Counted from the stretch's first letter, positions 18,631 through 33,160 are shown. The stretch: 64,000 nucleotides of DNA from an uncultured Chloroflexia bacterium (GCA_963712745.1 CAVQJC010000012.1:13319-77318); one strand, 5' to 3'. The notes: generated by a model from the letters alone, not told the origin. Translations and numbers: made by a program.

Positions 18631-19059
18631 GGGAGGCCATGGTAGCGACGTTTGGATGGCCCCGCCGGGGCTGGATCTGGGCTGAGAACCGCTACCCCTG
18701 CGGACCCGAGACGTCTTGCGAGCGCTGGCTCGTGGGCGACTGGCGCCGAGGTCCGGCCTGATCGTCCTGTATGGTTTGCATCGCGTCCAAGTGGCGCCCC
18801 GGTCATGGCCACATCGTGTGGTGGACGGTCACCAGCCTCTACCTACATCCTAACCAACCGCCCAGCCGTGACCTGAGGCCCGACCCAGGGAGGGCATGCT
18901 CTGCCCCTGCACGCCTCGCCATCGCGACCCGCCGCCTCTAGCGTCGCGGTCCCGCGCGCTTCGGAGGTGGCCCTCGCACGCCAGGCGCATGCCAGGAACG
19001 CGGACCGTGGGGCCGATGTCCGTGCGGCTGCGGCCACGCGCTGCGCCGAAGGTCGACCA

Positions 19060-20829
19060 ATGGCTGGGACAGGAGCCCGCCGCCGGCCACGTTGGCGCAC
19101 GTCGATGGCTGTCGCAGTCCTGCTGCCGCTGCTGCTCGGCAGCCTGGGGTTCGCTCCACTCCGCGCCGCCCAGCGAGACCTCCCGGCCGAGCCACTCACG
19201 TCCGTAGTGGCCGCCGAGGCCGAACCCACTCCCGAGCCGACGCCGACCCCCACTCCCGAGCCGACGCCGTGGCCGACGCCAGCCGGCCTCAAGGGTGTGG
19301 ACCTCAGCCACTGGAACGGCCATCCGGACTTCACCAAGCTGCAGGACAAGGGAGTGCACTTCGTCATCTCGAAGGCGACGCAGGGCACGTCCTTCGTGGA
19401 CGACACCTACCGCCGCCATACGCGAGACGCACGAGCGGCCGGCCTGCTGACCGGCGCCTACCACTTCTTCGACTACAACCGCAGCGGCATCAAACAGGCC
19501 CGGCACTTCCTCTCGACGCTGCGCGGCACGACGGGTCTGGGCTCGCATCTGCCCCTCGTGGTCGACGTCGAGACGCTGAAGTCCCTGGGCACGCCGGACA
19601 CGGCCAAGGCGCGGGCACGGCTCCAAGACCTGCTCGACGAGCTCTACCGCCAGACCGGCCGCTACCCGATGATCTACACCAGCCGCTACATGTGGCAGAA
19701 GGTGGTCGGCGCACCGACGAGCTTCGGGCAATACCCCCTCTGGGTGGCCTGCTGGGGGTGCGACACCGTGCATCTGCCCAGGGGCTGGAGCGGCTGGCAG
19801 TTCTGGCAGTACGGTCAGGCCAAGTTCGGCTCCGGCCACAAGCTCGACGCCAACGTCTATCGAAGCGCCCGCGCCAAGCTCGAGCTCGAACAGGAACGGC
19901 CGATGCAGCTGGACCGGGGTTCCAGCTGGACGTCGGACCGGGTCATCGAGGCCGACCTGCGCGGCTTCGACGGCACGCAGGTCCGCTACGGCATCGACAG
20001 CGACACGTTCGGGCCGTGGCTGCCGTATGAGCGACGACTCGACCTGAAGCTCAAGAGCCGCCAGGGCAAGCAGGGCGTACGCCTGCAGCTGCGCAGCTTC
20101 CGCGGCGTCAAGTCCCCGGTCCTGCGCAGCAACATCCAACTCGACACGGTGGCGCCGACGGTGAACGGGCCCAAGGTCAAGCTGCGCGCGAACGCACGTG
20201 TGCCGCTCGGCGGGAAACGGGTCCCCACGGTCGTGACGATGGACGCCCGCGACGCGACCTCGGGCCTCAAGTCGGCCGGGCTCTCCGTCATCTGTGACGG
20301 CAAGGTGCGAGCTTCCAGCCGGGGGCTGGCTGCCGGCGACGGGCTCTCCGTCGAACTGGACCGGCGAGGTTGCACGCTCAGGGGCTCCGCCAAGGACGCA
20401 GTCGGCCATCGCACCACGCGCAAGCTCTCGCCCCGGGTGGGCGTCTACGACATCCGCCGGAACACGGGCCGCGCTACCTTCTCCGGACGCTGGCAGATAG
20501 GCAACAGCAAGGACGCCATCGGTCGGAGCGTGGCACGGGCATCCGAACGTGGCGCGACCGCCAAGGTCCGCTTCGAGGGCACGCAGTTCGCCGTCGTGGC
20601 CAAGCGCGGCCCTGCCGGCGGTCGGTTCCGGGTCATCGTGGACGGCCGCGAGGTCGGTGTCGTAGATCTGTACGCCTCGAAGCCCACGACCCGCCGCGTG
20701 GTCTACGTGGCCAAGGTGCCCACGGGCAAGCACATGGTCAAGCTGGTGGCCACGGGCACCAAGCGCAAGAACGCCGCGGGTACGAGCGTCTGGCTCGACG
20801 CGGTCGTCGTCCTCGACCGCCACAAGTAG
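19060..20829 (+). CDS. secreted GH25 muramidase-family protein with C-terminal beta domains
   Basis: GVDLSHWN, KATQG, GAYHF, VVDVE, YPLWVA, FWQY; signal peptide and PT linker; start uncertain. Confidence 0.88.
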   Translation: MAGTGARRRPRWRTSMAVAVLLPLLLGSLGFAPLRAAQRDLPAEPLTSVVAAEAEPTPEPTPTPTPEPTPWPTPAGLKGVDLSHWNGHPDFTKLQDKGVHFVISKATQGTSFVDDTYRRHTRDARAAGLLTGAYHFFDYNRSGIKQARHFLSTLRGTTGLGSHLPLVVDVETLKSLGTPDTAKARARLQDLLDELYRQTGRYPMIYTSRYMWQKVVGAPTSFGQYPLWVACWGCDTVHLPRGWSGWQFWQYGQAKFGSGHKLDANVYRSARAKLELEQERPMQLDRGSSWTSDRVIEADLRGFDGTQVRYGIDSDTFGPWLPYERRLDLKLKSRQGKQGVRLQLRSFRGVKSPVLRSNIQLDTVAPTVNGPKVKLRANARVPLGGKRVPTVVTMDARDATSGLKSAGLSVICDGKVRASSRGLAAGDGLSVELDRRGCTLRGSAKDAVGHRTTRKLSPRVGVYDIRRNTGRATFSGRWQIGNSKDAIGRSVARASERGATAKVRFEGTQFAVVAKRGPAGGRFRVIVDGREVGVVDLYASKPTTRRVVYVAKVPTGKHMVKLVATGTKRKNAAGTSVWLDAVVVLDRHK

Positions 20830-21635: not shown

Positions 21636-22715
21636 CTAGCGAACGCGCGCGGCCGCGGCGCCGCCGGGAGCACCGGTCACGATCGGAGTCTCCCGGCCGA
21701 GCAGTGCGGCCGGCGGCAGCTCCACGCTCGGCGCGATGCCCGACTCGAGCCGGTCCGATTCCTCGATGAACAGCGGCACGAGGCCGGGGTCGAACTGCTT
21801 GCCACTATGCTTGCGCAGCTCCTCGAAGGCTTCTTCGACCGAGCGCGGTGCGCGGTAGGGTCGGCCACGGACGATGGCGTCGAAGGCATCGGCAAGCGCC
21901 ACGATGCGCGCCCCCAGCGGGATCTCCTCGGCCTTGAGGCCGTCGGGATAGCCCGTACCGTCCCAGCGCTCGTGGTGATGGCGGATGATGGGCGTGAAGT
22001 CGCGCGACATGCGCAGCGGGTCGCAGATGCGCTCACCGATCTCGGGGTGCTCGCGCATGATGCGGAACTCGTCCTCGGTCAGCGGCCCGGGCTTGTGCAG
22101 GACGTGCTCACTGATGCCGATCTTCCCGATGTCGTGCAGCAGCGCGCCGTAGGCCACACCCTCGAGCGCGCCGTCACGAAGCCCGACATAGGCGGCCAGA
22201 CGAGCCGATCGATAGGCCAGGTAACGGCAGTGGTCCTTGAGTCCGATGTCCTTGGCCTCGACGGCGTTGGCCAGGGCTACCACGATGTCGTGGGCCTGCT
22301 CCATGCGGCGGATGACCTCACGCGTGCGGAACGAGCTGCGCAGCCGGGCCAGCAGCTCCACCTGCTGGAACGGCTTGGTCACGAAGTCGTCCGCGCCGGC
22401 GTCGAGCGCGGCCACCATGTCGCTGGTGGAGGTGTGGGCGGTGAGGACGATGATGGGCAGCGTCACCGTGCGCGCGTCGGCACGCAGGCGCCGGCAGATC
22501 TCGAGCCCGTCCATGCGCGGCAACGTCAGGTCGAGGATGAGCATGTCCGGCTGGTGTTCGGCGACCGCGCGCAGTCCAAGCTCGCCATCAGCGATGGCGA
22601 TGACGCTGTATCCGGCGTCCTCGAGGATGCGACTCAGGACGCGCCGAACGGCGGCATCATCCTCGATGACTGCCACGCGGGGACGTGTCGAACCCCGGTG
22701 GGCAGTGTCCTGCAA
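21636..22715 (-). CDS. response regulator with HD-GYP phosphodiesterase domain (RpfG-like)
   Basis: Receiver (IEDD, ILD, KPF) plus HDIGK, HHERWDGTGYP, RPYR; TTG start at 22715 after GGAGGGAG. Confidence 0.92.
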   Translation of the reverse strand: MQDTAHRGSTRPRVAVIEDDAAVRRVLSRILEDAGYSVIAIADGELGLRAVAEHQPDMLILDLTLPRMDGLEICRRLRADARTVTLPIIVLTAHTSTSDMVAALDAGADDFVTKPFQQVELLARLRSSFRTREVIRRMEQAHDIVVALANAVEAKDIGLKDHCRYLAYRSARLAAYVGLRDGALEGVAYGALLHDIGKIGISEHVLHKPGPLTEDEFRIMREHPEIGERICDPLRMSRDFTPIIRHHHERWDGTGYPDGLKAEEIPLGARIVALADAFDAIVRGRPYRAPRSVEEAFEELRKHSGKQFDPGLVPLFIEESDRLESGIAPSVELPPAALLGRETPIVTGAPGGAAAARVR

Positions 22716-22884
22716 CGCTCTCCCTCCACTGCGCCACGACGACTTGACGCGGGTCAGCCGTGAGTATACCGAGCGTTGACAGTTGTCACCACGCGCGCGT
22801 GTTCTTCTCGACGACGGATGCCCGGTCGCGAGGTGTACATCCGGGCCAGCGAGCCGAAACTGAGGGGAGTGATAGCGTGTGCGC

Positions 22885-23721
22885 ATGGCCAGCAACCCTC
22901 GGCCGGCTCGGCGCCGCCGCTCGATGGGCCGCATCGCCCGCACAGGCGCCTCGTTCGCTCTGGCGGGGACCTTCGCGCTCGCCCTGCCCGTCCTCGGCAC
23001 CATCACGGCGACCGGGCGGGGGATCGCGCCGGTCGCGGCGGCCGAAGACGTCCGCCTCGACAAGGGCTCCATACCGGTCCGGATCCAGGTGCCCAGTGCC
23101 GGCATCGACCTGCCGGTGGTCTCGAGCCAGCGGACGGTACCGGGCAACGCCGGCAGCTATCCGCTCTGTGACGTGGCCCAGTACTGGACCATCTACGACC
23201 TGCCGGGCAAGCCGGGGACAGCCTGGATCTACGCTCACGCGCAGCCGGGCATGTTCCTGCCGCTGTTCACCATCTCCGAAGCGACGAACGGCCAGGGGCT
23301 GATCGGGGACAAGGTCAAGCTGCAGCTGAAGGACGGCCGTCTGCTGACGTACCGCATCACCGAGGTCCGCGAGCGTGCCACCCGGCGATCCATCGCCCAG
23401 CGCGACAAGCCCAACGAGCATCGCCTGGTCCTCCAGACCAGCACGGGCCCGCCCGGCACCGTGCCCAAGCTCCAGGTCGCGGCCAAGCTCGTGGACGCCA
23501 CGCGTACCGACGCGAAGCCGCCCAGGGCCCAGCCACGGGCCTGCTGGCAGCCGAAGCCCAGGCCGACGCGCAAGGGCGCCAAGCCCAGGCCGACACCAGA
23601 GCCGGTCGAGGTGGTCGAGCCCGGCGAACCGTTCGATGCCATGGCGCTTGTGCTCGGGAGCGGGGCCGTACTGATCGGGGCCACCATCGTGTCGGTCTAC
23701 ATCATCCGTCGCGGTCCCTGA
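22885..23721 (+). CDS. sortase-fold protein with non-canonical active site
   Basis: RIQVPSAGIDLPVV, PGKPGTAWIYAHA...F, GDKV, YRI, LVLQTS; N-terminal hydrophobic segment and C-terminal TM. Confidence 0.75.
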   Translation: MASNPRPARRRRSMGRIARTGASFALAGTFALALPVLGTITATGRGIAPVAAAEDVRLDKGSIPVRIQVPSAGIDLPVVSSQRTVPGNAGSYPLCDVAQYWTIYDLPGKPGTAWIYAHAQPGMFLPLFTISEATNGQGLIGDKVKLQLKDGRLLTYRITEVRERATRRSIAQRDKPNEHRLVLQTSTGPPGTVPKLQVAAKLVDATRTDAKPPRAQPRACWQPKPRPTRKGAKPRPTPEPVEVVEPGEPFDAMALVLGSGAVLIGATIVSVYIIRRGP

Positions 23722-23809
23722 CCCCTCCCCCTCTCCCGCGGGGGAGGTCCACAGGACTCGCCTGCCCTGATCACGGGCGGACGCGAATGCGATGACGCGA
23801 CACACGAAG

Positions 23810-23844
23810 ACGACGGCCGGGTCCTTGAGGGACCCGGCCGTCGT
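23810..23844. terminator. bidirectional terminator-like hairpin between convergent genes
   Basis: acgacggccgggtcc-ttgag-ggacccggccgtcgt, perfect 15-bp stem. Confidence 0.8.
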
Positions 23845-23870
23845 ACCGGTTGCGAAAGGCTGGTGTTCGT

Positions 23871-26800
23871 CTAGCGGCGGTTGCGCACCTCTGCGAGACG
23901 CTGGTGGCGGATGATCCAGCCGGCGCTGACGATGGTCAGAGCGCTGAGCATCAGCCAGATGGCCCAGTTGAAGGGACCGCCGAAGGGCTCACCGTCGTCC
24001 GTGGCAGCCGAGAGGCTGTCGGTCACGAGCAGCATGTCCGTCGGAGGCTGGCTCTTGCCACCACCCGTGCTCTTGCCACCGCCGCCGATGAACTTGACCG
24101 TGGCATCGTCCTTGGCCTCAGCGAAGCGAGGGGTGATGCCCGGAGGCGGTACCAGCGGGTTGACGTCGGTCACCTTGATGTGGGCCGTGTCCTTGTGCGG
24201 CGTGTCGAGGTCACCCACGAGCTCCACCGTGAACTGACACTTGTGGTCCACGTTCGGTTCAACGACCGTGCCGTAGAGGCCTTCACAAGTATTGTCCTTG
24301 ATGTTGGGGTTGTTGCTGTCGAGCAGGTTGTCGTCCTCGGGATCATCCCACAGCTCGTACAGGTAGATGGGCGTGCTAGTGACCGTGTGGCTGAAGGTGA
24401 GGACGAACGTCACCTCGGTGCCGGACTCGACCGAGTCAACGACCTCCCCGTCGACGAACGGGACCTTCTTCAGCGTGATGTCGATCTCTTGCGTCGAGCG
24501 CTTCGGGACCTCGACGGCCTTTTCGTCCTTGTCGGTCGCGGTGCGCTTCTTGGCGTCCGTCACGATCACCTCGGCGGTGTTCGGATAGATGCCCGTGTCC
24601 CAATGGTCAACGGAGTAGTTGCAGGTGGCCGTGTCGCCATCGTCGCCGTAGGGCTCAAGGATGGTGCCCATCAGCCCCGGGTCGCAGGCGGCGAAGCCGT
24701 CCGCGATCCCACTCTGGGTATCGGTCAGTGTCGTGATCTCCACGGGCACGACAGACAGGTTCTGGATGGTCAGGGTGTAGTTGAACGTGCCGCCCGGCCA
24801 CGGGAGACCGTTCTTGTCGACGTCCTTGATGAGGTCGACGGCGATGCGGTCGACGGTGACCTCATCGCAGATCAGATCGGGAGCATCCCCGACCTGGTCT
24901 GAGTCGACGCAAGCCTGGTTGTAGACCTGGCCGTTCTCGACGTCGGTTGGAGTGGTGGTGTAGGTAGCGGTGCATTCGATGGCCTGACCGCTGAGCAGCT
25001 TGTCCACCGGCAGCGTCACCTCGTCGGACCCGACCGTGCATGTCCACGGAAGCCCGTCGAGCAGCGAGTCGGTGATATCGACGTCGGTGAGCGCAGCCAC
25101 ACCGATGTTGGTGGCGGTGATGGTGTACTCGATCTTCTCGCCAGCCTCGGCATACTGATCGGTCGAGGCTTCCTTGACGATCTTGAGCTTGGCGACCGGG
25201 GTCTCGACGTCGTCACAGACCTTGGCGGTCTCGACGCTGTCAGCACAGGCCGCGTTCAGGACCTTGCCTGGCGGGACATCCATGTCGCCGGCCACGATGG
25301 TGTAGCTGGCGGTACAGATGATCTGGTCAGCGATGGCCAGGGTCGGCACGGGGAACGACAGCGGAGCGCCCGCGCCGTTCAGCTTGCAGACCCAGTTGTC
25401 CAGGTCACCCACGGCCGTCAGGTCGTCGGTGACATCGACCTTCGTGAGGGCGGTCTTGCCCGCGTTGGTGGCCGTGACCGTGTAGTTGATCACGTCGCCA
25501 ACTGCGCTGTAGTACTCACGGTCGGCCTTCTTGACGATGGTCAGCTGTGAGCGCAGGACGGTCTCGTCGTCGCAGACCTCGTCCCGGACCTCGTCGGCGT
25601 CGGCACAAGCCTGGTTGTAGACCTGGCCGGCCTCGAGATCGGCTTCGGTGATGGAATGGGTGGCCGTGCAGATGACCGAGTCACCCACGCCCAGCTCGAC
25701 GGGCAGGTCGACCTTGTCGCCAGGTGCATCGTCGAGCACACAGCTGAAGTCGTCCAGTCCACCGGGGAACTTGTCGGTCACGTCCACATCGGTCAGCTTG
25801 GTCTGCCCGACGTTGGTGGCCGTGATGGTGTACGTGATGAGGTCGTCGACCTCGTCGTAGAACTCCGGATCAGCCGTCTTCGTGATCTTCAGGGCTGCGT
25901 GGTAGTTCGTGACCTCACAGGTGAGCTCGTCGCCCACCGCAAGCGTCACGGTGCCGTCGGCCGCACAGGCGCCCGTCCAGTCGCCAGCCACGTAGTCGGG
26001 GATGTCCATGACCTCGGAGGCGGTGTACTCGACACCGGCCTTGAGCTCGTTGGCCACGGCCCACTCGACCTCATCCTGGTCGATGTAGGGGATGAAGTCC
26101 TCGAGCTCGCCGGGGCCGCCGACGATGGCCTTGGTGAGGGTCAGCTTGGGTGCGATGTCCTGGTTGGTGATGATGCACTCGACGTCGTCACCCGGCTTGA
26201 GGGTGACGGTGCCCTTGAGGGCATCGGGGCAGGCGTCGTCGCCGGTGAGGGAGACGAACTCGTAGCCCTTGAGGCCGACCTCGTCGAGGACCAGGGCCTT
26301 GTTGGCCGTGTACGTGTTGGCCACGCCACTGGTGACGGGCGTGCCGTCGACGCTGATGCCGAACTGGTCAGGGGTGGCCTTGCCACCGTGGTTGTTGTCG
26401 ACCTTCTTGGTGAGCGTCAGCTTCGGACCGATGTCCTGGTTGACGATGGTGCAGTCGACGTCGTCACCGGGCTGCAGGGTGACCGTGCCCTTGAGGGCGT
26501 CCGGGCAGACCTGGTCGCCGGTGATCTCGACGAACTCGTAACCCTTGAGGCCGACCTCGTCGATGACGAGGGCCTTGTTGGCCACGTAGGTGTTCGTGGC
26601 GCCACTGGTCACAGGGGTGCCGTCGACGCTGATGCCGAACTGGTCGGGCTTGGCGTCGCCACCGTTGTTGTTGTTGACCTTCTTGGTGAGGGTCAGCTTG
26701 GGTGCGATGTCCTGGTTGGTGATGATGCACTCGACGTCGTCACCCGGCTTGAGGGTGACGGTGCCCTTGAGGGCATCGGGGCAGGCGTCGTCGCCGGTGA

Positions 26801-29800
26801 GGGAGACGAACTCGTAGCCCTTGAGGCCGACCTCGTCGAGGACGAGGGCCTTGTTGGCCGTGTACGTGTTGGCCACGCCACTGGTGACGGGCGTGCCGTC
26901 GACGCTGATGCCGAACTGGTCGGGCTTGGCGTCGCCACCGTGGTTGTTGTCGACCTTCTTGGTGAGCGTCAGCTTCGGACCGATGTCCTGGTTGACGATG
27001 GTGCAGTCGACGTCGTCACCGGGCTGCAGGGTGACCGTGCCCTTGAGGGCGTCCGGGCAGACCTGGTCGCCGGTGATCTCGACGAACTCGTAACCCTTGA
27101 GGCCGACCTCGTCGATGACGAGGGCCTTGTTGGCCACGTAGGTGTTCGTGGCGCCACTGGTCACAGGGGTGCCGTCGACGCTGATGCCGAACTGGTCGGG
27201 CTTGGCGTCGCCACCGTTGTTGTTGTTGACCTTCTTGGTGAGGGTCAGCTTGGGTGCGATGTCCTGGTTGGTGATGATGCACTCGACGTCGTCACCCGGC
27301 TTGAGGGTGACGGTGCCCTTGAGGGCATCGGGGCAGGCGTCGTCGCCGGTGAGGGAGACGAACTCGTAGCCCTTGAGGCCGACCTCGTCGAGGACGAGGG
27401 CCTTGTTGGCCGTGTACGTGTTGGCCACGCCACTGGTGACGGGCGTGCCGTCGACGCTGATGCCGAACTGGTCGGGCTTGGCGTCGCCACCGTGGTTGTT
27501 GTCGACCTTCTTGGTGAGCGTCAGCTTCGGACCGATGTCCTGGTTGACGATGGTGCAGTCGACGTCGTCACCGGGCTGCAGGGTGACCGTGCCCTTGAGG
27601 GCGTCCGGGCAGACCTGGTCGCCGGTGATCTCGACGAACTCGTAACCCTTGAGGCCGACCTCGTCGATGACGAGGGCCTTGTTGGCCACGTAGGTGTTCG
27701 TGGCGCCACTGGTCACAGGGGTGCCGTCGACGCTGATGCCGAACTGGTCGGGCTTGGCGTCGCCACCGTTGTTGTTGTTGACCTTCTTGGTGAGGGTCAG
27801 CTTGGGTGCGATGTCCTGGTTGGTGATGATGCACTCGACGTCGTCACCCGGCTTGAGGGTGACGGTGCCCTTGAGGGCATCGGGGCAGGCGTCGTCGCCG
27901 GTGAGGGAGACGAACTCGTAGCCCTTGAGGCCGACCTCGTCGAGGACGAGGGCCTTGTTGGCCGTGTACGTGTTGGCCACGCCACTGGTGACGGGCGTGC
28001 CGTCGACGCTGATGCCGAACTGGTCGGGCTTGGCGTCGCCACCGTGGTTGTTGTCGACCTTCTTGGTGAGCGTCAGCTTCGGACCGATGTCCTGGTTGAC
28101 GATGGTGCAGTCGACGTCGTCACCGGGCTGCAGGGTGACCGTGCCCTTGAGGGCGTCCGGGCAGACCTGGTCGCCGGTGATCTCGACGAACTCGTAACCC
28201 TTGAGGCCGACCTCGTCGATGACGAGGGCCTTGTTGGCCACGTAGGTGTTCGTGGCGCCACTGGTCACAGGGGTGCCGTCGACGCTGATGCCGAACTGGT
28301 CGGGCTTGGCGTCGCCACCGTTGTTGTTGTTGACCTTCTTGGTGAGGGTCAGCTTGGGTGCGATGTCCTGGTTGGTGATGATGCACTCGACGTCGTCACC
28401 CGGCTTGAGGGTGACGGTGCCCTTGAGGGCATCGGGGCAGGCGTCGTCGCCGGTGAGGGAGACGAACTCGTAGCCCTTGAGGCCGACCTCGTCGAGGACG
28501 AGGGCCTTGTTGGCCGTGTACGTGTTGGCCACGCCACTGGTGACGGGCGTGCCGTCGACGCTGATGCCGAACTGGTCAGGGGTGGCCTTGCCACCGTGGT
28601 TGTTGTCGACCTTCTTGGTGAGCGTCAGCTTGCCTTCGGTGGGCTCGTTGCGGAAGGTGCAGGTGATGACGTCGTTGTTGCCGAGCGTCAGCTTGACGCC
28701 GTTGTCTGCCGCGTTGTTGTCGACGGTGACATTCGCGCCCTGGTTGGTCACGCACTTGGCGTTCTTATCGCCGGCCCAGGTGACGAGCGACCAGCCGTTG
28801 CCGAGCCGGGCGTCCGTCTCCTTGACGGTGGCTGTGACGTCGCCCGTAAGGGCGAAGTTGAAGTTGACGGCGCCGCCGCCGTTGGTCTTGCCGTTGGCCG
28901 GTTCGGAGGTGATCGCCACGGCCGGGTTAGAGGAGGCCTCGTACTGCCAGCCTGATTCGGGTGTCCAACCACCCTTGCCGTCAGGGACTTCCTTGACGAC
29001 GGTGATCGAACCGCCACAGAGCTCCAGAGCGATCTTCTTCAGTGCCTGGCCAAGCTCGTCCCAGTCGCCGACTGCGTAGGCGTCGCCGGGGCCGGACACG
29101 AGCACAAGGTTCGTCGGATTGCTGACGGCCTGGCCCACACCGATCGCGAGGATCGTGGGCTTGCTGGGCAACGCCTTGAGCGAGTTGGCGGACAGGATGC
29201 CGGCCTCGACGTCAGCGAGGTGGACGGTGCCACCCTCGTAGTTCTGGCTGTCACCGTAGGTCGTCGGATTGCCGTCAGAGACCTTGACGACGACCTGGGC
29301 ATCCGGGGCCAGCGCCGCGACCGTGCGGAAGGCGCTGTCCCAGTTGGTGCCGCCGTCGGGATTGTTGACCTTGTCGATGTCCTGGTGGACGGCGGTAGTG
29401 CTGCTCAGCACGCTGTCCCAGGAGCCATCTGACTCCTCGCGGCCAAGCCAACTGAAGCTGAAGACACGGAACTCCGTGGGCGTGCCCTTGAACACGTCGA
29501 CGAAGTCCTTGGCGGCACTCCGCAGGGTTCCGTTCTCTTCGCTCGTGGAACCGGACTCGTCCAGCAGGAGCGCGATCTTCAGGCCGCACGCCTTCGGGAC
29601 GGTGTTGTTGTCCTTGCGGTTGACGAAGACCGGCGTCGTCGTGGTCTGGCCCGACTGGACGACGGCATCGTAGTGATACGTTTGGTTGCTCTGGTTCGTG
29701 TTCGAGCCGCTGCCATAGGCAATGGCCGGAATGATGTTCCAGCCGCTTGGCGCGGTCTTCTCCGTGACCGTGTAGGTATCGGGATCGAGGTTCACAGAGA

Positions 29801-31139
29801 CCTGGCCACCGACCGTCTGGCCGGTCGTGGTGGTCGAACCGTTCTTGACCTCGAAGGTAGCGCCATCGAGCGGCTTGGCGATGTTGGTCCGGCTGGTGCC
29901 GTTCCTGTAACCACCCTTCCTGACTACGAGTTGACCCTGCTCGACGGCGGCCGGGGCGACTCGCGTGGCCTTCGTCGCCTTGGGCGCTGCGGGTGCTTCG
30001 ACGATGGGCTCTTCGGTCGCCTCAGGCTGGGCGAGGGCATCTGCGAGCGGGTCGACGACGCACTCGCCGGTGATCAGATCGATGATGCAGTCGTTGGCCG
30101 GCTCTTCGGCGACCGGCTTCCCTTCGGCCGGGGCCTCGGTGGGCTCCTCGACCACGGTGTCTTCGGCCGGGGCCTCGGTGGGCTCCTCGACCACGGTGTC
30201 TTCGGCCGGGGCCTCGGTGGGCTCCTCGACCACGATGTCTTCGGCCGGGGCCTCGGTGGGCTCCTCGACCACGATGTCTTCGGCCGGGGCCTCGGTGGGC
30301 TCCTCGACCACGATGTCTTCGGCCGGGGCCTCGGTGGGCTCCTCGACCACGATGTCTTCGGCCGGGGCCTCGGTGGGCTCCTCGACCACGATGTCTTCGG
30401 CCGGGGCCTCGGTGGGCTCCTCGACCTTGGGCAGCTCGACCTTGGGCAGCTCGACCTGGGGCAGGTCGCTGACGACCAGCTCGTCAACGGCCGGAGCGAC
30501 CGCAGTCTCGGCTGCGCGGATCTTGATCTTGATCTTGGCCTTCATATCGCCGCGCTTGGCGATGAGGCGGGTGCGGCCGGGCTCGTCGCCGGCGAAGACG
30601 CGGATCTTCTTGGCCTTGTCCTTGGAGGCCCGCGCGACGGACTCGTCACGCATGATCCAGTCGACATTCACGACCTTGCAGAGGTCATCGGCGCTGGGCT
30701 TGCTGTCGGCGCCAAAGGGAGAGGCATCCCCGGCGGGACATTCGTAGGCACGGACCTTCTTCTTGACCCCGCCCACCTCAAGCTTGATGACCTTGGGGTG
30801 GATGACGAGCACCATCTCGGGCTCGACCGGCTCAGCCTTGGGCTCGACCTTGAGCGGCTCGAGGGCCGGTGCGGCCTTCTTGGGCTCAGCCGTCCTGGGC
30901 GCGGGCTCGGACTTCTCGGCCTTCTTGACCGTGGGTCCGGGCTCCTCTGGTTCAGCTGGTTGCTCCGGCGCCGGATCGGACTGCTGCTCGGCAGCGGCCG
31001 GGTCGTGGGATGCAAGTGCATCCTCTTGGGCCAGTACCGACAACGGCGCAAAGACCAGCGTTGTCAGCAATAGGATCGCCTGCAGCACAGCCAGCAAGGC
31101 CATGCGCGAACGACCCCCACGGTTCGTGGACGAATACAT
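23871..31139 (-). CDS. giant surface adhesin: vWA domain, CnaB/SpaA-like repeats, DUF11-like Ig domains, C-terminal sorting signal
   Basis: Signal peptide; MIDAS DESGS...GGTNW...SDGNP; nine 92-aa KLTLTK...NQD repeats; ITYTITATNxG domains; QPPTD + TM + RNRR. Confidence 0.9.
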   Translation of the reverse strand: MYSSTNRGGRSRMALLAVLQAILLLTTLVFAPLSVLAQEDALASHDPAAAEQQSDPAPEQPAEPEEPGPTVKKAEKSEPAPRTAEPKKAAPALEPLKVEPKAEPVEPEMVLVIHPKVIKLEVGGVKKKVRAYECPAGDASPFGADSKPSADDLCKVVNVDWIMRDESVARASKDKAKKIRVFAGDEPGRTRLIAKRGDMKAKIKIKIRAAETAVAPAVDELVVSDLPQVELPKVELPKVEEPTEAPAEDIVVEEPTEAPAEDIVVEEPTEAPAEDIVVEEPTEAPAEDIVVEEPTEAPAEDIVVEEPTEAPAEDTVVEEPTEAPAEDTVVEEPTEAPAEGKPVAEEPANDCIIDLITGECVVDPLADALAQPEATEEPIVEAPAAPKATKATRVAPAAVEQGQLVVRKGGYRNGTSRTNIAKPLDGATFEVKNGSTTTTGQTVGGQVSVNLDPDTYTVTEKTAPSGWNIIPAIAYGSGSNTNQSNQTYHYDAVVQSGQTTTTPVFVNRKDNNTVPKACGLKIALLLDESGSTSEENGTLRSAAKDFVDVFKGTPTEFRVFSFSWLGREESDGSWDSVLSSTTAVHQDIDKVNNPDGGTNWDSAFRTVAALAPDAQVVVKVSDGNPTTYGDSQNYEGGTVHLADVEAGILSANSLKALPSKPTILAIGVGQAVSNPTNLVLVSGPGDAYAVGDWDELGQALKKIALELCGGSITVVKEVPDGKGGWTPESGWQYEASSNPAVAITSEPANGKTNGGGAVNFNFALTGDVTATVKETDARLGNGWSLVTWAGDKNAKCVTNQGANVTVDNNAADNGVKLTLGNNDVITCTFRNEPTEGKLTLTKKVDNNHGGKATPDQFGISVDGTPVTSGVANTYTANKALVLDEVGLKGYEFVSLTGDDACPDALKGTVTLKPGDDVECIITNQDIAPKLTLTKKVNNNNGGDAKPDQFGISVDGTPVTSGATNTYVANKALVIDEVGLKGYEFVEITGDQVCPDALKGTVTLQPGDDVDCTIVNQDIGPKLTLTKKVDNNHGGDAKPDQFGISVDGTPVTSGVANTYTANKALVLDEVGLKGYEFVSLTGDDACPDALKGTVTLKPGDDVECIITNQDIAPKLTLTKKVNNNNGGDAKPDQFGISVDGTPVTSGATNTYVANKALVIDEVGLKGYEFVEITGDQVCPDALKGTVTLQPGDDVDCTIVNQDIGPKLTLTKKVDNNHGGDAKPDQFGISVDGTPVTSGVANTYTANKALVLDEVGLKGYEFVSLTGDDACPDALKGTVTLKPGDDVECIITNQDIAPKLTLTKKVNNNNGGDAKPDQFGISVDGTPVTSGATNTYVANKALVIDEVGLKGYEFVEITGDQVCPDALKGTVTLQPGDDVDCTIVNQDIGPKLTLTKKVDNNHGGDAKPDQFGISVDGTPVTSGVANTYTANKALVLDEVGLKGYEFVSLTGDDACPDALKGTVTLKPGDDVECIITNQDIAPKLTLTKKVNNNNGGDAKPDQFGISVDGTPVTSGATNTYVANKALVIDEVGLKGYEFVEITGDQVCPDALKGTVTLQPGDDVDCTIVNQDIGPKLTLTKKVDNNHGGKATPDQFGISVDGTPVTSGVANTYTANKALVLDEVGLKGYEFVSLTGDDACPDALKGTVTLKPGDDVECIITNQDIAPKLTLTKAIVGGPGELEDFIPYIDQDEVEWAVANELKAGVEYTASEVMDIPDYVAGDWTGACAADGTVTLAVGDELTCEVTNYHAALKITKTADPEFYDEVDDLITYTITATNVGQTKLTDVDVTDKFPGGLDDFSCVLDDAPGDKVDLPVELGVGDSVICTATHSITEADLEAGQVYNQACADADEVRDEVCDDETVLRSQLTIVKKADREYYSAVGDVINYTVTATNAGKTALTKVDVTDDLTAVGDLDNWVCKLNGAGAPLSFPVPTLAIADQIICTASYTIVAGDMDVPPGKVLNAACADSVETAKVCDDVETPVAKLKIVKEASTDQYAEAGEKIEYTITATNIGVAALTDVDITDSLLDGLPWTCTVGSDEVTLPVDKLLSGQAIECTATYTTTPTDVENGQVYNQACVDSDQVGDAPDLICDEVTVDRIAVDLIKDVDKNGLPWPGGTFNYTLTIQNLSVVPVEITTLTDTQSGIADGFAACDPGLMGTILEPYGDDGDTATCNYSVDHWDTGIYPNTAEVIVTDAKKRTATDKDEKAVEVPKRSTQEIDITLKKVPFVDGEVVDSVESGTEVTFVLTFSHTVTSTPIYLYELWDDPEDDNLLDSNNPNIKDNTCEGLYGTVVEPNVDHKCQFTVELVGDLDTPHKDTAHIKVTDVNPLVPPPGITPRFAEAKDDATVKFIGGGGKSTGGGKSQPPTDMLLVTDSLSAATDDGEPFGGPFNWAIWLMLSALTIVSAGWIIRHQRLAEVRNRR
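26141..28633. repeat. nine 276-bp coding repeats alternating A/B (552-bp period)
   Basis: Near-identical blocks; shadow ORFs recur every 552 nt (26269, 26821, 27373, 27925, 28477). Confidence 0.97.
30122..30426. repeat. 39-bp coding tandem repeat, about 8 copies (EEPTEAPAED[I/T]VV)
   Basis: cttcggccggggcctcggtgggctcctcgaccacg[a/g]tgt at 39-nt spacing. Confidence 0.95.
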
Positions 31140-31567: not shown

Positions 31568-33160
31568 ATGCGCCGAATCGCCACCCTCTCACTCGCGCTG
31601 CTGGCCATGGCCACGCTGGCCATGCCTGCCCATGGCGCCGACTACCCCGCCAAGGACAGCGGCTACCACTCCTACAAGGAGATGGTCAGGCACATCAGGT
31701 CCGTCGCCGCCAAGTACCCCAACATCGTGCGTGTCTTCTCCATCGGCCTGAGCCACGAAGGCCGCAAGTTGTGGGCGGCGGAGGTGAGCGACAAGGTGGG
31801 CAAGGATGAGGGCGAACCCGAGGTCCTCTTCGACGGGCTGCACCACGCGCGGGAGCATCTGAGCGCCGAGATGCCCATCTACATCCTCGACCTGCTCACG
31901 AAGCAGTACGGCAAGTCCTCCGACTTGGGCCGACGCGTCACCAGGCTGGTCGATACGCGGCGGACCTGGCTCGTGTTCATGGTCAACCCCGACGGCCTGC
32001 AGTACGACCTGACCGGCGCTCCCTACCGCCACTGGCGCAAGAATCGCCAGCCGACGTCGGGTTCGGGCAATGTCGGCACGGATCTCAACCGAAACTATGG
32101 GTACAGGTTCGGCTGCTGCGGGGGCTCGTCGGGCGATCCGGCAGCCTGGGACTACCGCGGGCCGCGCGCCTGGTCCGCACCCGAGACCCGCGCCCTGCGC
32201 GGCTTCATCGAGGGCCGGCGGATCGGTGGCCAACAGCGGATCCGCGCACACATCACCTTCCACACCGCCGGCGAACTGGTGCTCTGGCCCTATGCCTACA
32301 CCCGGACCGGCCTGCCCTCGGACATGACCGACCTCGATCTGCGCACGTTCCGGGCACTGGGCAAGGCCATGGCCAAGCGGAGTGGGTACACGCCGATGCA
32401 GTCGAGCGCGCTGTATCGAAGCGACGGCGACATGATCGACTGGACGTACTCGCAACAGCGCATCTTCTCGTTTACGGTCGAGCTGTACCCGACGGGCGGG
32501 AACACGCCCCAGAACCACTACCCGCCCGACGACATCATCAGCCGCGAGACCAAGCGGAACCGCGAGATGGTCCTGTACCTCATCAAGAAGGCTTCATGTC
32601 CCTATGCCGTCCTCGGTGCGACCGAGGCCCGGGTCAACTGCGGACCCTTCTTCGATGACCTTGAGGTGTGGCGGGGGTGGCGCGCCGACCCCCAGGGCAC
32701 CGACAGCGCCTCCGACGGCACCTGGCAGCGCGGCGACCCGCAGGGCGATGTCCTGCAGCTGGGCTCGGCCGTGTCCGGGCGGTCGGCCCTGGTTACCGGC
32801 CGCAAGGCGGGTCACGACGTGGACGGTGGTCGCACCAGCGTTCGTTCCCCGCTGTTCACGCTGCCGACCGGCCGGAAGGCCACGCTGAAGCTGCGCTACT
32901 GGGTGGGCCTGTCCAAAGGCGCCGGCGACGACGACGGATTCGCCATCTACCTGGTGGGCAAGGACGGCAAGCGACTGAGCCGGCTGCTGGAGGTCTCGGG
33001 CACGGGCCGGAAGCGGACGCCGGCCTGGAAACGCCTTCAGAGGACGCTGCCCAAGAGCCTGCGGGGCAAGCGCGTGGCTATCGAGCTGGCGGCCTACGAC
33101 AAGGGCAAAGGCGCCATCGTCGAGGCCGGCGTCGACCAGGTCCGCGTGTATCTCGACTGA
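31568..33160 (+). CDS. secreted M14 zinc carboxypeptidase (carboxypeptidase T-like) with C-terminal beta domain
   Basis: HHARE, NPDG, WRKN, DLNRNY, TFH, ELYP. Confidence 0.92.
   Translation: MRRIATLSLALLAMATLAMPAHGADYPAKDSGYHSYKEMVRHIRSVAAKYPNIVRVFSIGLSHEGRKLWAAEVSDKVGKDEGEPEVLFDGLHHAREHLSAEMPIYILDLLTKQYGKSSDLGRRVTRLVDTRRTWLVFMVNPDGLQYDLTGAPYRHWRKNRQPTSGSGNVGTDLNRNYGYRFGCCGGSSGDPAAWDYRGPRAWSAPETRALRGFIEGRRIGGQQRIRAHITFHTAGELVLWPYAYTRTGLPSDMTDLDLRTFRALGKAMAKRSGYTPMQSSALYRSDGDMIDWTYSQQRIFSFTVELYPTGGNTPQNHYPPDDIISRETKRNREMVLYLIKKASCPYAVLGATEARVNCGPFFDDLEVWRGWRADPQGTDSASDGTWQRGDPQGDVLQLGSAVSGRSALVTGRKAGHDVDGGRTSVRSPLFTLPTGRKATLKLRYWVGLSKGAGDDDGFAIYLVGKDGKRLSRLLEVSGTGRKRTPAWKRLQRTLPKSLRGKRVAIELAAYDKGKGAIVEAGVDQVRVYLD

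Follow-up and report, generated by a model that had tools for sequence, protein, structure and literature searches.

Sortases are known from textbooks as cysteine transpeptidases and are in wide use as tools for protein ligation. In a stretch of DNA of 64,000 nucleotides from an uncultured Chloroflexia bacterium (GCA_963712745.1 CAVQJC010000012.1:13319-77318, the whole of which is called the window here), a gene for a sortase-like protein with serine at the position of the catalytic cysteine converges on a gene for a 2422-residue surface adhesin. The original prediction, made from the sequence of the window alone, read this pair as a putative serine sortase with a substrate that ends in a QPPTD-type sorting signal, or else took the sortase-like protein for a catalytically dead chaperone. 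In this study, we examine the fold and conservation of the enzyme, the C-terminal tail of the adhesin, and the distribution of both across related genomes. The comparisons make it probable that the protein is an active serine-nucleophile variant of the sortases and a dedicated processor of LPXTG-like signals.

Organization of the locus

The enzyme gene, its product and the hairpin downstream of it are laid out as follows, with enzyme residues numbered from the GTG codon at 22879.

22885..23721, + strand: gene of the serine-type sortase-fold enzyme, 278 amino acids from ATG 22885 or 280 from GTG 22879
22912..23013, + strand: Arg-rich N-terminal signal or membrane helix, residues 12-45, a helix in the AlphaFold2 (AF2) model
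23056..23553, + strand: sortase-fold catalytic domain, residues ~60-225, placed by AF2 confidence, Foldseek and VIA-align
23167..23169, + strand: Cys97 (TGT), in YPLCDVAQYW, a family-specific insertion relative to canonical sortase (alignments)
23236..23238, + strand: His120 (CAC), in WIYAHAQ, the catalytic His position, aligned to the canonical sortase His
23440..23442, + strand: Ser188 (AGC), in LVLQTS, the sortase catalytic Cys position (LQTS against TLxTC; sequence and profile alignment)
23467..23469, + strand: Lys197 (AAG), in VPKLQV, the sortase catalytic Arg position (profile alignment)
23542..23544, + strand: Cys222 (TGC), in PRACWQP, conserved within the C-terminal extension (alignments)
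23638..23709, + strand: C-terminal transmembrane helix of the enzyme, residues 254-277, then RRGP; a helix in the AF2 model, kept in close orthologues
23812..23842, no strand assigned: terminator-like hairpin with a perfect 13-bp stem and a 5-nt loop, read from sequence between the stop codons of the convergent pair

The ATG at 22885 is the likely start, because homologues begin MA. A Pro/Lys-rich linker, visible in both sequence and AF2 model, joins the catalytic domain to the C-terminal helix, and IIRRGP ends the protein directly after that helix. Translation thus bears out what had been read for the enzyme: a His retained in IYAHA, VLQTS at the TLxTC position, and a C-terminal transmembrane segment of its own with an Arg-Arg tail.

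The features of the adhesin gene lie on the opposite strand.

23871..31139, - strand: gene of the 2422-residue surface adhesin, the putative substrate, convergent to the enzyme gene (signal peptide and Pfam domains)
24030..24050, - strand: core sorting motif QPPTDML, with QPPTD at 24036-24050 (sequence and orthologous tails)
23910..23966, - strand: transmembrane segment of the adhesin tail (sequence and tail alignment)
23874..23909, - strand: basic cytoplasmic tail RHQRLAEVRNRR (sequence and tail alignment)

Pfam assigns to the adhesin ten SpaA_2 domains (prealbumin-like), four DUF7507 and three DUF11 domains, plus a weak VWA match. Its C-terminus runs from QPPTD through MLL, a 23-residue acidic and Gly-rich spacer and a hydrophobic segment to RHQRLAEVRNRR, the same arrangement of motif, spacer, membrane segment and basic tail that the original prediction gave. 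Two tandem arrays occupy other parts of the gene, and arrays of this kind are prone to assembly collapse. One has a 276-bp period (9.1 copies, 86% matches, within 26130-28632), with an open reading frame (ORF) pattern indicative of near-identical double units of 552 bp that encode SpaA_2 domains; the other has a 39-bp period (30122-30426, 7.8 copies, 99%) and encodes an acidic 13-residue repeat.

A GEPF string shortly before the membrane segment had also been noted in both proteins. It is present in the window pair but is not conserved in the homologues of either: the enzyme consensus is weak (Gly in 38, Glu in 40, Pro in 45 and Ile in 25 of 121 sequences), the tails read roughly G-G-P-x-x-G, and the string was treated as chance or low complexity, not as a shared functional motif.

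The enzyme has a sortase fold with altered catalytic residues

Three comparisons place the enzyme among the sortases, where a different fold would have spoken against the original prediction. The Pfam Sortase model (PF04203) matches residues 69-193 with 37.8 bits against a cut-off of 26.6, and scores 39.4 bits for the enzyme in the genome scan. The AF2 model, built with 99 homologues, has a mean predicted local distance difference test (pLDDT) score of 83.2, and ten-residue blocks over residues 61-230 average 82-98, mostly 93-98. When the model was compared with the Protein Data Bank (PDB) by Foldseek, the top matches were all sortases, the best being sortase E of T. fusca (E 1.5e-8, probability 1.00), and VIA-align superimposed 139 residues on S. 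pyogenes SrtA with a Z score of 13.9 and a root-mean-square deviation of 3.5 A. A PDB sequence search with the single enzyme protein gave no sortase match and two chance matches only. One homologue, P0082, scored at most 0.83 against sortase clusters of the ESM Atlas, a lead only. The NCBIfam class models put the enzyme in no named class (best class F, 21.2 bits against a cut-off of 166), and paralogues of the lipoprotein type, described below, likewise scored below cut-off at 16-26 bits.

The equivalence of the active-site residues comes from alignment of the family profile by hhalign to the cysteine sortase of the same genome (probability 95.9), which places WIYAHAQPGMF on LYGHAREGAF, LVLQTS on LTLQTC and PKLQV on PRFVV. 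His120, Ser188 and Lys197 accordingly correspond to the canonical His, Cys and Arg, including the Lys in PKLQV that had been proposed for the Arg position, and the YPLCDVAQYW segment with Cys97 is an insertion relative to the canonical protein. The catalytic His of sortases is present; the catalytic Cys in TLxTC and the catalytic Arg are absent. Judged from these alignments, the enzyme is homologous to sortases yet departs from them in two defining catalytic features. Because Cys97 and Cys222 are both invariant, the protein is exported, and the AF2 secondary-structure string has isolated beta-bridges at residues 97 and 220, the two cysteines probably form a disulfide.

Ser188 is not an assembly error

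AGC differs from TGC by one base, and the original prediction had cautioned, noting errors in the assembly, that Ser188 could be a miscalled codon in an ordinary cysteine sortase; some related copies in metagenome-assembled genomes (MAGs) carry frameshifts. The codon was compared with contigs from other public sequencing runs, one of which may be the source sample. Contigs of X2 (23380-23814) and X3 (23341-23601) span 23440 with no difference from the window, and a contig of the RNA library X10 (23320-23567) has a single difference, at 23485, and none at 23440. Among 58 copies of the family, 57 from related loci in other MAGs plus that of the window, the codon for Ser188 is AGC in 53, AGT in 3 and TCC in 2. 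The search pattern for related loci included LQTS, which biases that set taken alone; the word-indexed protein search and the profile search are free of this bias.

From the word-indexed search, 121 sequences were aligned, comprising the query, the database entry for the query and 119 homologues of 47-72% identity. Ser188, His120, Cys97 and Cys222 are each present in 121/121, and at position 197 there are 111 sequences with Lys and 10 with Arg. When 1.84 billion cluster representatives were searched with a profile, which needs no word index, 458 proteins reached E<=1e-3. Among the best 150 of these 458, position 188 is aligned in 136 and is Ser in 130, Gly in 2, and Cys, Pro, Gln and Glu in one each, the Gln and Glu rows being fragments or misaligned. 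The other positions in this set are similarly constant (His120 in 139/143, Cys97 in 143/143, Cys222 in 110/114), and Lys197 occurs in 120 and Arg in 3 of 134 aligned sequences. Thr187, which precedes the nucleophile position as in TLxTC, is invariant. The agreement of the contigs, the serine in 121/121 close and 130/136 diverse homologues, and the use of both AGC/AGT and TCC codons leave a negligible chance for a miscall: Ser188 is no assembly error, and that reading is refuted.

Residue conservation and the question of activity

Replacement of both the nucleophilic Cys and the Arg is what an inert protein might display, one that keeps the fold and the peptide groove and binds tail-bearing adhesins at the membrane as a receptor, chaperone or retention factor; such a binding partner would also show the same genomic pairing with its ligand as an enzyme with its substrate. 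Dead enzymes usually drift, however, and here clusters that share 50% identity or less show almost no variation at His120, Thr187, Ser188 and Lys/Arg197. In addition, the sole sub-clade that has lost Ser188, a pair of sister taxa in the tree with Gly at this position, has lost His120 (to Gln and Asn) and Lys197 (to Val and Asn) as well. This pattern of His, Ser and Lys, together with Thr187, is what would be expected of catalytic residues and is unlike that of relics. We therefore regard an inert pseudo-sortase as unlikely and, between the two possibilities first put forward, favor a His-Ser-Lys enzyme over a dead chaperone.

A FastTree phylogeny of 133 sequences and 163 columns, limited to rows with at least 125 aligned residues and rooted on the cysteine sortase of the same genome, recovers the Ser family as a single clade on a long branch, with modest support values. 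The lone Cys188 sequence, which reads LVLQTC and retains both His and Lys, sits 15 nodes within this clade. It would thus be a reversion or an error in the record and not an intermediate, and its nested position suggests that Ser and Cys are interchangeable there.

The family comprises two forms. One is membrane-tailed, like the enzyme of the window, with a C-terminal helix. The other, commoner form is of the lipoprotein type, which has lipobox-like signals at its start and stops a few residues past Cys222, so that PRxC lies at the C-terminus; additional N-terminal domains, or a tandem pair of catalytic domains, occur in some copies. Most membrane-tailed forms, though not all, group with that of the window in one sub-clade, again with modest support. 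Species-representative genomes contributed 55 related loci, of which 53 lie in MAGs with the labels Chloroflexota, Chloroflexi, Chloroflexia, Anaerolineae, Anaerolineaceae, Limnocylindria or Limnocylindrales, and the remaining two from one labelled Firmicutes and one labelled Dormiibacterota; the Ser-type family is almost entirely confined to Limnocylindria (Chloroflexota) MAGs.

Some loci have unusual structures. At L036 (9467-12903), a 312-residue protein lies between two Ser-type enzymes, one with two domains in tandem and the other with a single domain; the 312-residue protein has a different C-terminal helix, an RRR tail, no P-x-T-D motif seen and no NCBIfam name. The enzyme genes of L012, L029, L033 and L044 are split across frames and represent assembly indels or pseudogenes, as do the split tail genes of L011 and L017.

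The adhesin tail is a conserved C-terminal domain

At orthologous loci, the convergent gene downstream of the membrane-tailed enzyme ends in the same domain of ~58 residues. An alignment of 18 such tails, all drawn from loci with the membrane-tailed enzyme and used as profile A3, has an invariant Thr in PTD, Leu two residues after the Asp, a Trp that opens the helix, one Ile and one Arg. The profile found 47 further database proteins, which are named only 'hypothetical' or 'TIGR01451 repeat protein'. The pattern [PK][PS]T[DN][MTL]L occurs in 52/56 unique tails and is PPTDML in 37 of these; the four tails without it look like frameshifted gene calls. The spacer from motif to helix measures 14-23 residues in these QPPTD-type tails. 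The passenger parts vary, from ~200 to 2422 residues, and in the ten tail proteins examined DUF7507/DUF11 domains were found in all ten, with SpaA_2 also in three. DUF7507 and DUF11 domains are typical of Gram-positive sortase substrates.

The tail belongs to no catalogued sorting signal among the NCBIfam -CTERM models: the adhesin tail gave no match at E up to 10, and whole proteins gave none. The C-terminus of the enzyme itself scored 14.4 bits against the cut-off of 29 for GVDTG_CTERM.

The tail tracks the membrane-tailed enzyme

Whole-genome searches found an A3 tail in 20/21 genomes with the membrane-tailed enzyme, mostly as its convergent neighbour, and in 0/12 genomes that have only the lipoprotein-type paralogue. 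The lone miss is a genome (G207) in which the enzyme lies on a 5-kb contig. Tails number 1-4 per genome, with exactly one in 11/20, and some are unlinked to the enzyme. In a sample of 201 genomes of the class, the sole full-length match to the enzyme and the sole strong A3 match both fall in the genome of the window; a weak A3 match in G029, which was neither C-terminal nor accompanied by the motif, was discarded. A3 was built from the same loci that were later counted for pairing. The gene order at these loci is syntenic: DnaE, GH25, acyltransferase, response regulator/HD-GYP, the enzyme convergent with one or more adhesins, M14 carboxypeptidase and Bmp.

Adjacency that amounts to one inherited arrangement, a GH25 muramidase and an M14 carboxypeptidase within the same syntenic block, and the length of the spacer would all suit an active enzyme with some other job, whose targets might for example be stem peptides of peptidoglycan or different proteins of the envelope, with the adhesin tail a plain anchor that is left uncleaved. 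What speaks against this is that the tail is far better conserved than the passenger, and its P-x-T-D core, in which the Thr never varies, resembles LPXTG. Moreover, tails track the type of enzyme even when unlinked to it, at 1-4 per genome in the clade of the window or 1-8 in sister genomes, and two paralogue loci hold a tail gene within 5 kb of the enzyme. We consider such a separate job to be quite unlikely.

A wider LPXTG-like signal in the bacterial family

A second weak A3 match, in a genome with lipoprotein-type enzymes only (G023), was confirmed as a true tail, in which LPPTDTL and a spacer of reduced length precede a helix and a C-terminus rich in Arg, and the search was therefore widened beyond QPPTD. 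Used singly as a query, this tail gave many low-complexity matches, and it was dropped in favor of a profile of nine G023-like tails (A4) and inspection of loci. In the same 201-genome sample, A4 matched as follows, where f1 is the family to which the window belongs.

f1: 54/60 genomes, 1-8 matches per genome
f2: 0/7 genomes
f3: 2/66 genomes, all E > 3e-5
f4: 8/66 genomes, all E > 3e-5
f5: 1/1 genome, E 9.1e-4

The genome-wide count of tail proteins that had been suggested as a check thus gives 1-4 by A3 in the clade of the window and 1-8 by A4 in f1 genomes. Of the best 30 A4 loci, which were inspected, 29 hold 39 unique tails with [LPQVIT]P[PASNT]T[DSAT]; a spacer of 9-16 residues separates this motif from a helix and a basic, Arg-rich end. 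The commonest motifs are LPPTD (10), LPATD (6), PPPTD (5), PPPTS (4) and PPNTA (3), and the residue after Thr is Asp in 27, Ser in 6, Ala in 5 and Thr in 1. The family-wide signal, [L/P/Q]P-x-T-[D/S/A], is thus broader than the xPPTD motif first proposed; by its sequence it appears to be an LPXTG-type signal in which Asp, Ser or Ala replaces Gly.

The Ser-type enzyme is found in 59/60 sampled f1 genomes. In the sixtieth, G161, the profile match coincides with a canonical sortase, and there are no tails either. A tail gene lies at most 5 kb from a lipoprotein-type enzyme gene in two genomes, G089 and G047. The sister-family tallies for the enzyme and for canonical sortases include six unpublished genomes (G112, G067, G106, G151, G096 and G123), and no other count depends on these. 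Outside f1, four small f2 genomes of 1.0-1.4 Mb (G011, G044, G056 and G158) match the Ser-type profile at E 1e-13 to 1e-20 and have no A3 or A4 tail.

Canonical sortases have a separate substrate

The genome of the window encodes a single canonical sortase domain (C5:198045-198407, with LTLQTC and PRFVV), and the sortases of the class adjoin proteins with a similar motif, so that either this enzyme or another protease elsewhere could process the tails and leave the Ser protein an accessory. The distribution of canonical sortases does not follow that of the tails. A clear canonical sortase (at least 46 bits) occurs in only 5/21 genomes with a QPPTD-type tail. PF04203 at E<=1e-9 detects a protein in 18/60 f1 genomes, in five of which it is the Ser enzyme itself, leaving canonical sortases in 13/60 against tails in 54/60; at this threshold, no cysteine sortase is detectable in 42/54 tail-bearing f1 genomes. 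In those 42 genomes there is no other sortase for the chemistry, which argues in turn against an inert Ser protein.

Canonical sortases adjoin a small Ig-like protein that ends in LP[RN]T[SD]T (LP[RN]T[SD]TLP in its fuller form), a short spacer, a helix and Arg-Arg. This cassette was seen in 4/4 further loci and in G135, and eight sister-family neighbourhoods gave few clear tails. The cysteine sortase so has a substrate cassette of its own. In the genome of the window, an Ig-like part with LPRTST is fused to the sortase domain in one ORF of 297 residues (C5:198033-198923; L001 1486-2379, - strand) that lacks both intervening membrane segments, while the two are separate adjacent genes in relatives; the arrangement could reflect fusion of a substrate to its enzyme, a deletion or an error of assembly. 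The exosortase model PF09721 has no match in this genome, which is 84.55% complete. Processing of the tails by a canonical sortase, the outcome that would have undercut the original prediction, or by another protease is on these grounds very unlikely. The relatedness of LP[RN]T[SD] to the tail motif points to descent of the Ser enzymes from a sortase with an existing preference for LP-x-T-[D/S].

Neighbouring genes and a hint of expression

One further gene adjoins the pair.

21636..22700 (upper end approximate), - strand: response-regulator and HD-GYP gene, divergent from the enzyme gene (Pfam Response_reg and HD_5, residues 158-455 of ORF 21636-23147)

The antisense ORF 21636-23147 (- strand) is a real gene only in its 3' two thirds and does not overlap the enzyme gene. 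Its product is of the cyclic di-GMP phosphodiesterase type, and its divergent position is kept in orthologous loci; in C. difficile, cyclic di-GMP is reported to be linked to sortase substrates (PMC4591827). The pair is bracketed by a GH25 muramidase gene (18967-20829, + strand) and an M14 zinc carboxypeptidase gene (31568-33160, + strand), both syntenic in relatives, for which a role in wall remodelling or tail trimming is possible. In the metatranscriptome X10, contigs at 23320-23567 and 23662-23845 represent some of the enzyme gene as well as the intergenic region, and hint at expression of the enzyme gene; DNA can be present in such libraries.

Proposed mechanism and points against it

In the serine-sortase reading that we favor, the adhesin would be secreted and would stay tethered to the membrane through its tail, and the exported, membrane-tethered enzyme would bind the P-x-T-D motif. 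Ser188 would attack the Thr carbonyl, with His120 as general base and Lys197 in the role of the Arg, releasing the helix and tail and forming an acyl (ester) enzyme. The adhesin would then pass either to an envelope amine, which would anchor it to the wall, or to water, which would release it. The Cys97-Cys222 bridge may fix the C-terminal extension near the groove, and the long linker of the enzyme may match the long spacer of the substrate. Catalysis by Ser188, cleavage after Thr and the acceptor are inferred. There is about an even chance that this extends to a whole family, such that His/Ser/Lys sortases with an extra disulfide have taken the place of cysteine sortases, are the sole sorting enzymes across a Limnocylindria family and read an LPXTG-like signal with Asp after Thr, the form in the window being a branch for giant DUF11/SpaA adhesins with QPPTDML.

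Several points weigh against a serine sortase. The solved sortases that match structurally are described as cysteine enzymes, and replacement of the Cys in S. aureus SrtA reportedly abolishes activity. Replacement of Arg by Lys is reportedly poorly tolerated, and sortase A variants engineered either from Cys to Ser or from Arg to Lys are poor or dead, so that a working Ser/Lys pair would need compensating changes. A paper with a C184S sortase uses it as a cysteine-free background only and is, in its available portion, silent on activity. The spacers of 14-23 and 9-16 residues exceed those of typical LPXTG signals. As to the genomic evidence, adjacency reflects one inherited syntenic locus and the 20 genomes are not independent, and family-level co-occurrence is essentially that of one clade compared with its sisters. 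Six of the 60 f1 genomes lack an A4 tail, and 4/7 of the small f2 genomes have an enzyme match and no tail. Finally, the cysteine sortases of the class appear to use the similar motif LP[RN]T[SD], so the motif alone is not discriminating.

If the serine-sortase reading is true, the sortase fold supports oxy-ester chemistry, and the family is a natural experiment on the changes that surround a swapped nucleophile. It could yield oxidation-insensitive ligases with a new recognition motif, P-x-T-D, would explain how large adhesins are displayed in abundant uncultured Chloroflexota of sediment and water, and would add a sorting signal to the genome-annotation catalogue. If the proteins are inert instead, they are a conserved pseudo-sortase family, which would likewise be new.

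Comparison with known systems

Searches of the full-text literature, subscription-only papers not being covered, yielded in the portions available no description of a serine sortase or of such a tail. No model in NCBIfam 20.0 represents the enzyme subgroup, its paralogues or the tail, and the database names are 'sortase' or 'hypothetical protein'.

The closest relatives are the cysteine sortases of classes A-F (PF04203), with which the enzyme shares the beta-barrel fold, its solved neighbours being class E enzymes of T. fusca and Streptomyces and the class A enzyme of S. pyogenes. Like them, it has a His preceded by an aromatic residue and one other, a Thr just before the nucleophile (LQT-S for TLxT-C), an extracytoplasmic tether, and paired surface proteins with a Pro/Thr motif, a hydrophobic helix and a basic tail. 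Unlike them, it has Ser for Cys and, in most members, Lys for Arg, together with a 9-residue insertion holding the invariant Cys97 and a C-terminal extension holding the invariant Cys222. The signal also differs, with Asp, Ser or Ala and never Gly after the Thr in the tails seen, and with a longer spacer. Within the sortases, class C has the same topology, an N-terminal signal plus a C-terminal anchor on the enzyme, and there too the enzyme gene adjoins that of a SpaA-type, VWA-containing surface protein. In contrast to class C, the enzyme has no lid motif that we could identify, no sign of pilin polymerisation and different catalytic residues; most tested genomes of the window's clade have one or two tail proteins, and none has more than four.

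A serine nucleophile is found in rhombosortase as well. Rhombosortase and GlyGly-CTERM, exosortase and PEP-CTERM, and archaeosortase and PGF-CTERM are dedicated sorting pairs (bioRxiv 10.1101/2023.06.07.544157). As in those pairs, a short tripartite C-terminal domain on several proteins per genome tracks one processing enzyme, whose gene is often close by. Their enzymes are polytopic membrane proteins of unrelated folds, whereas the enzyme here is a soluble sortase barrel on a tether. The exchange of nucleophile itself has parallels among other transpeptidase and protease folds, for example the D,D- and L,D-transpeptidases (PMC6391942), in which one type of reaction is carried out by Ser or by Cys depending on lineage. 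In those cases the folds differ; in the family described here, the exchange would have taken place inside one fold and been accompanied by a change from Arg to Lys.

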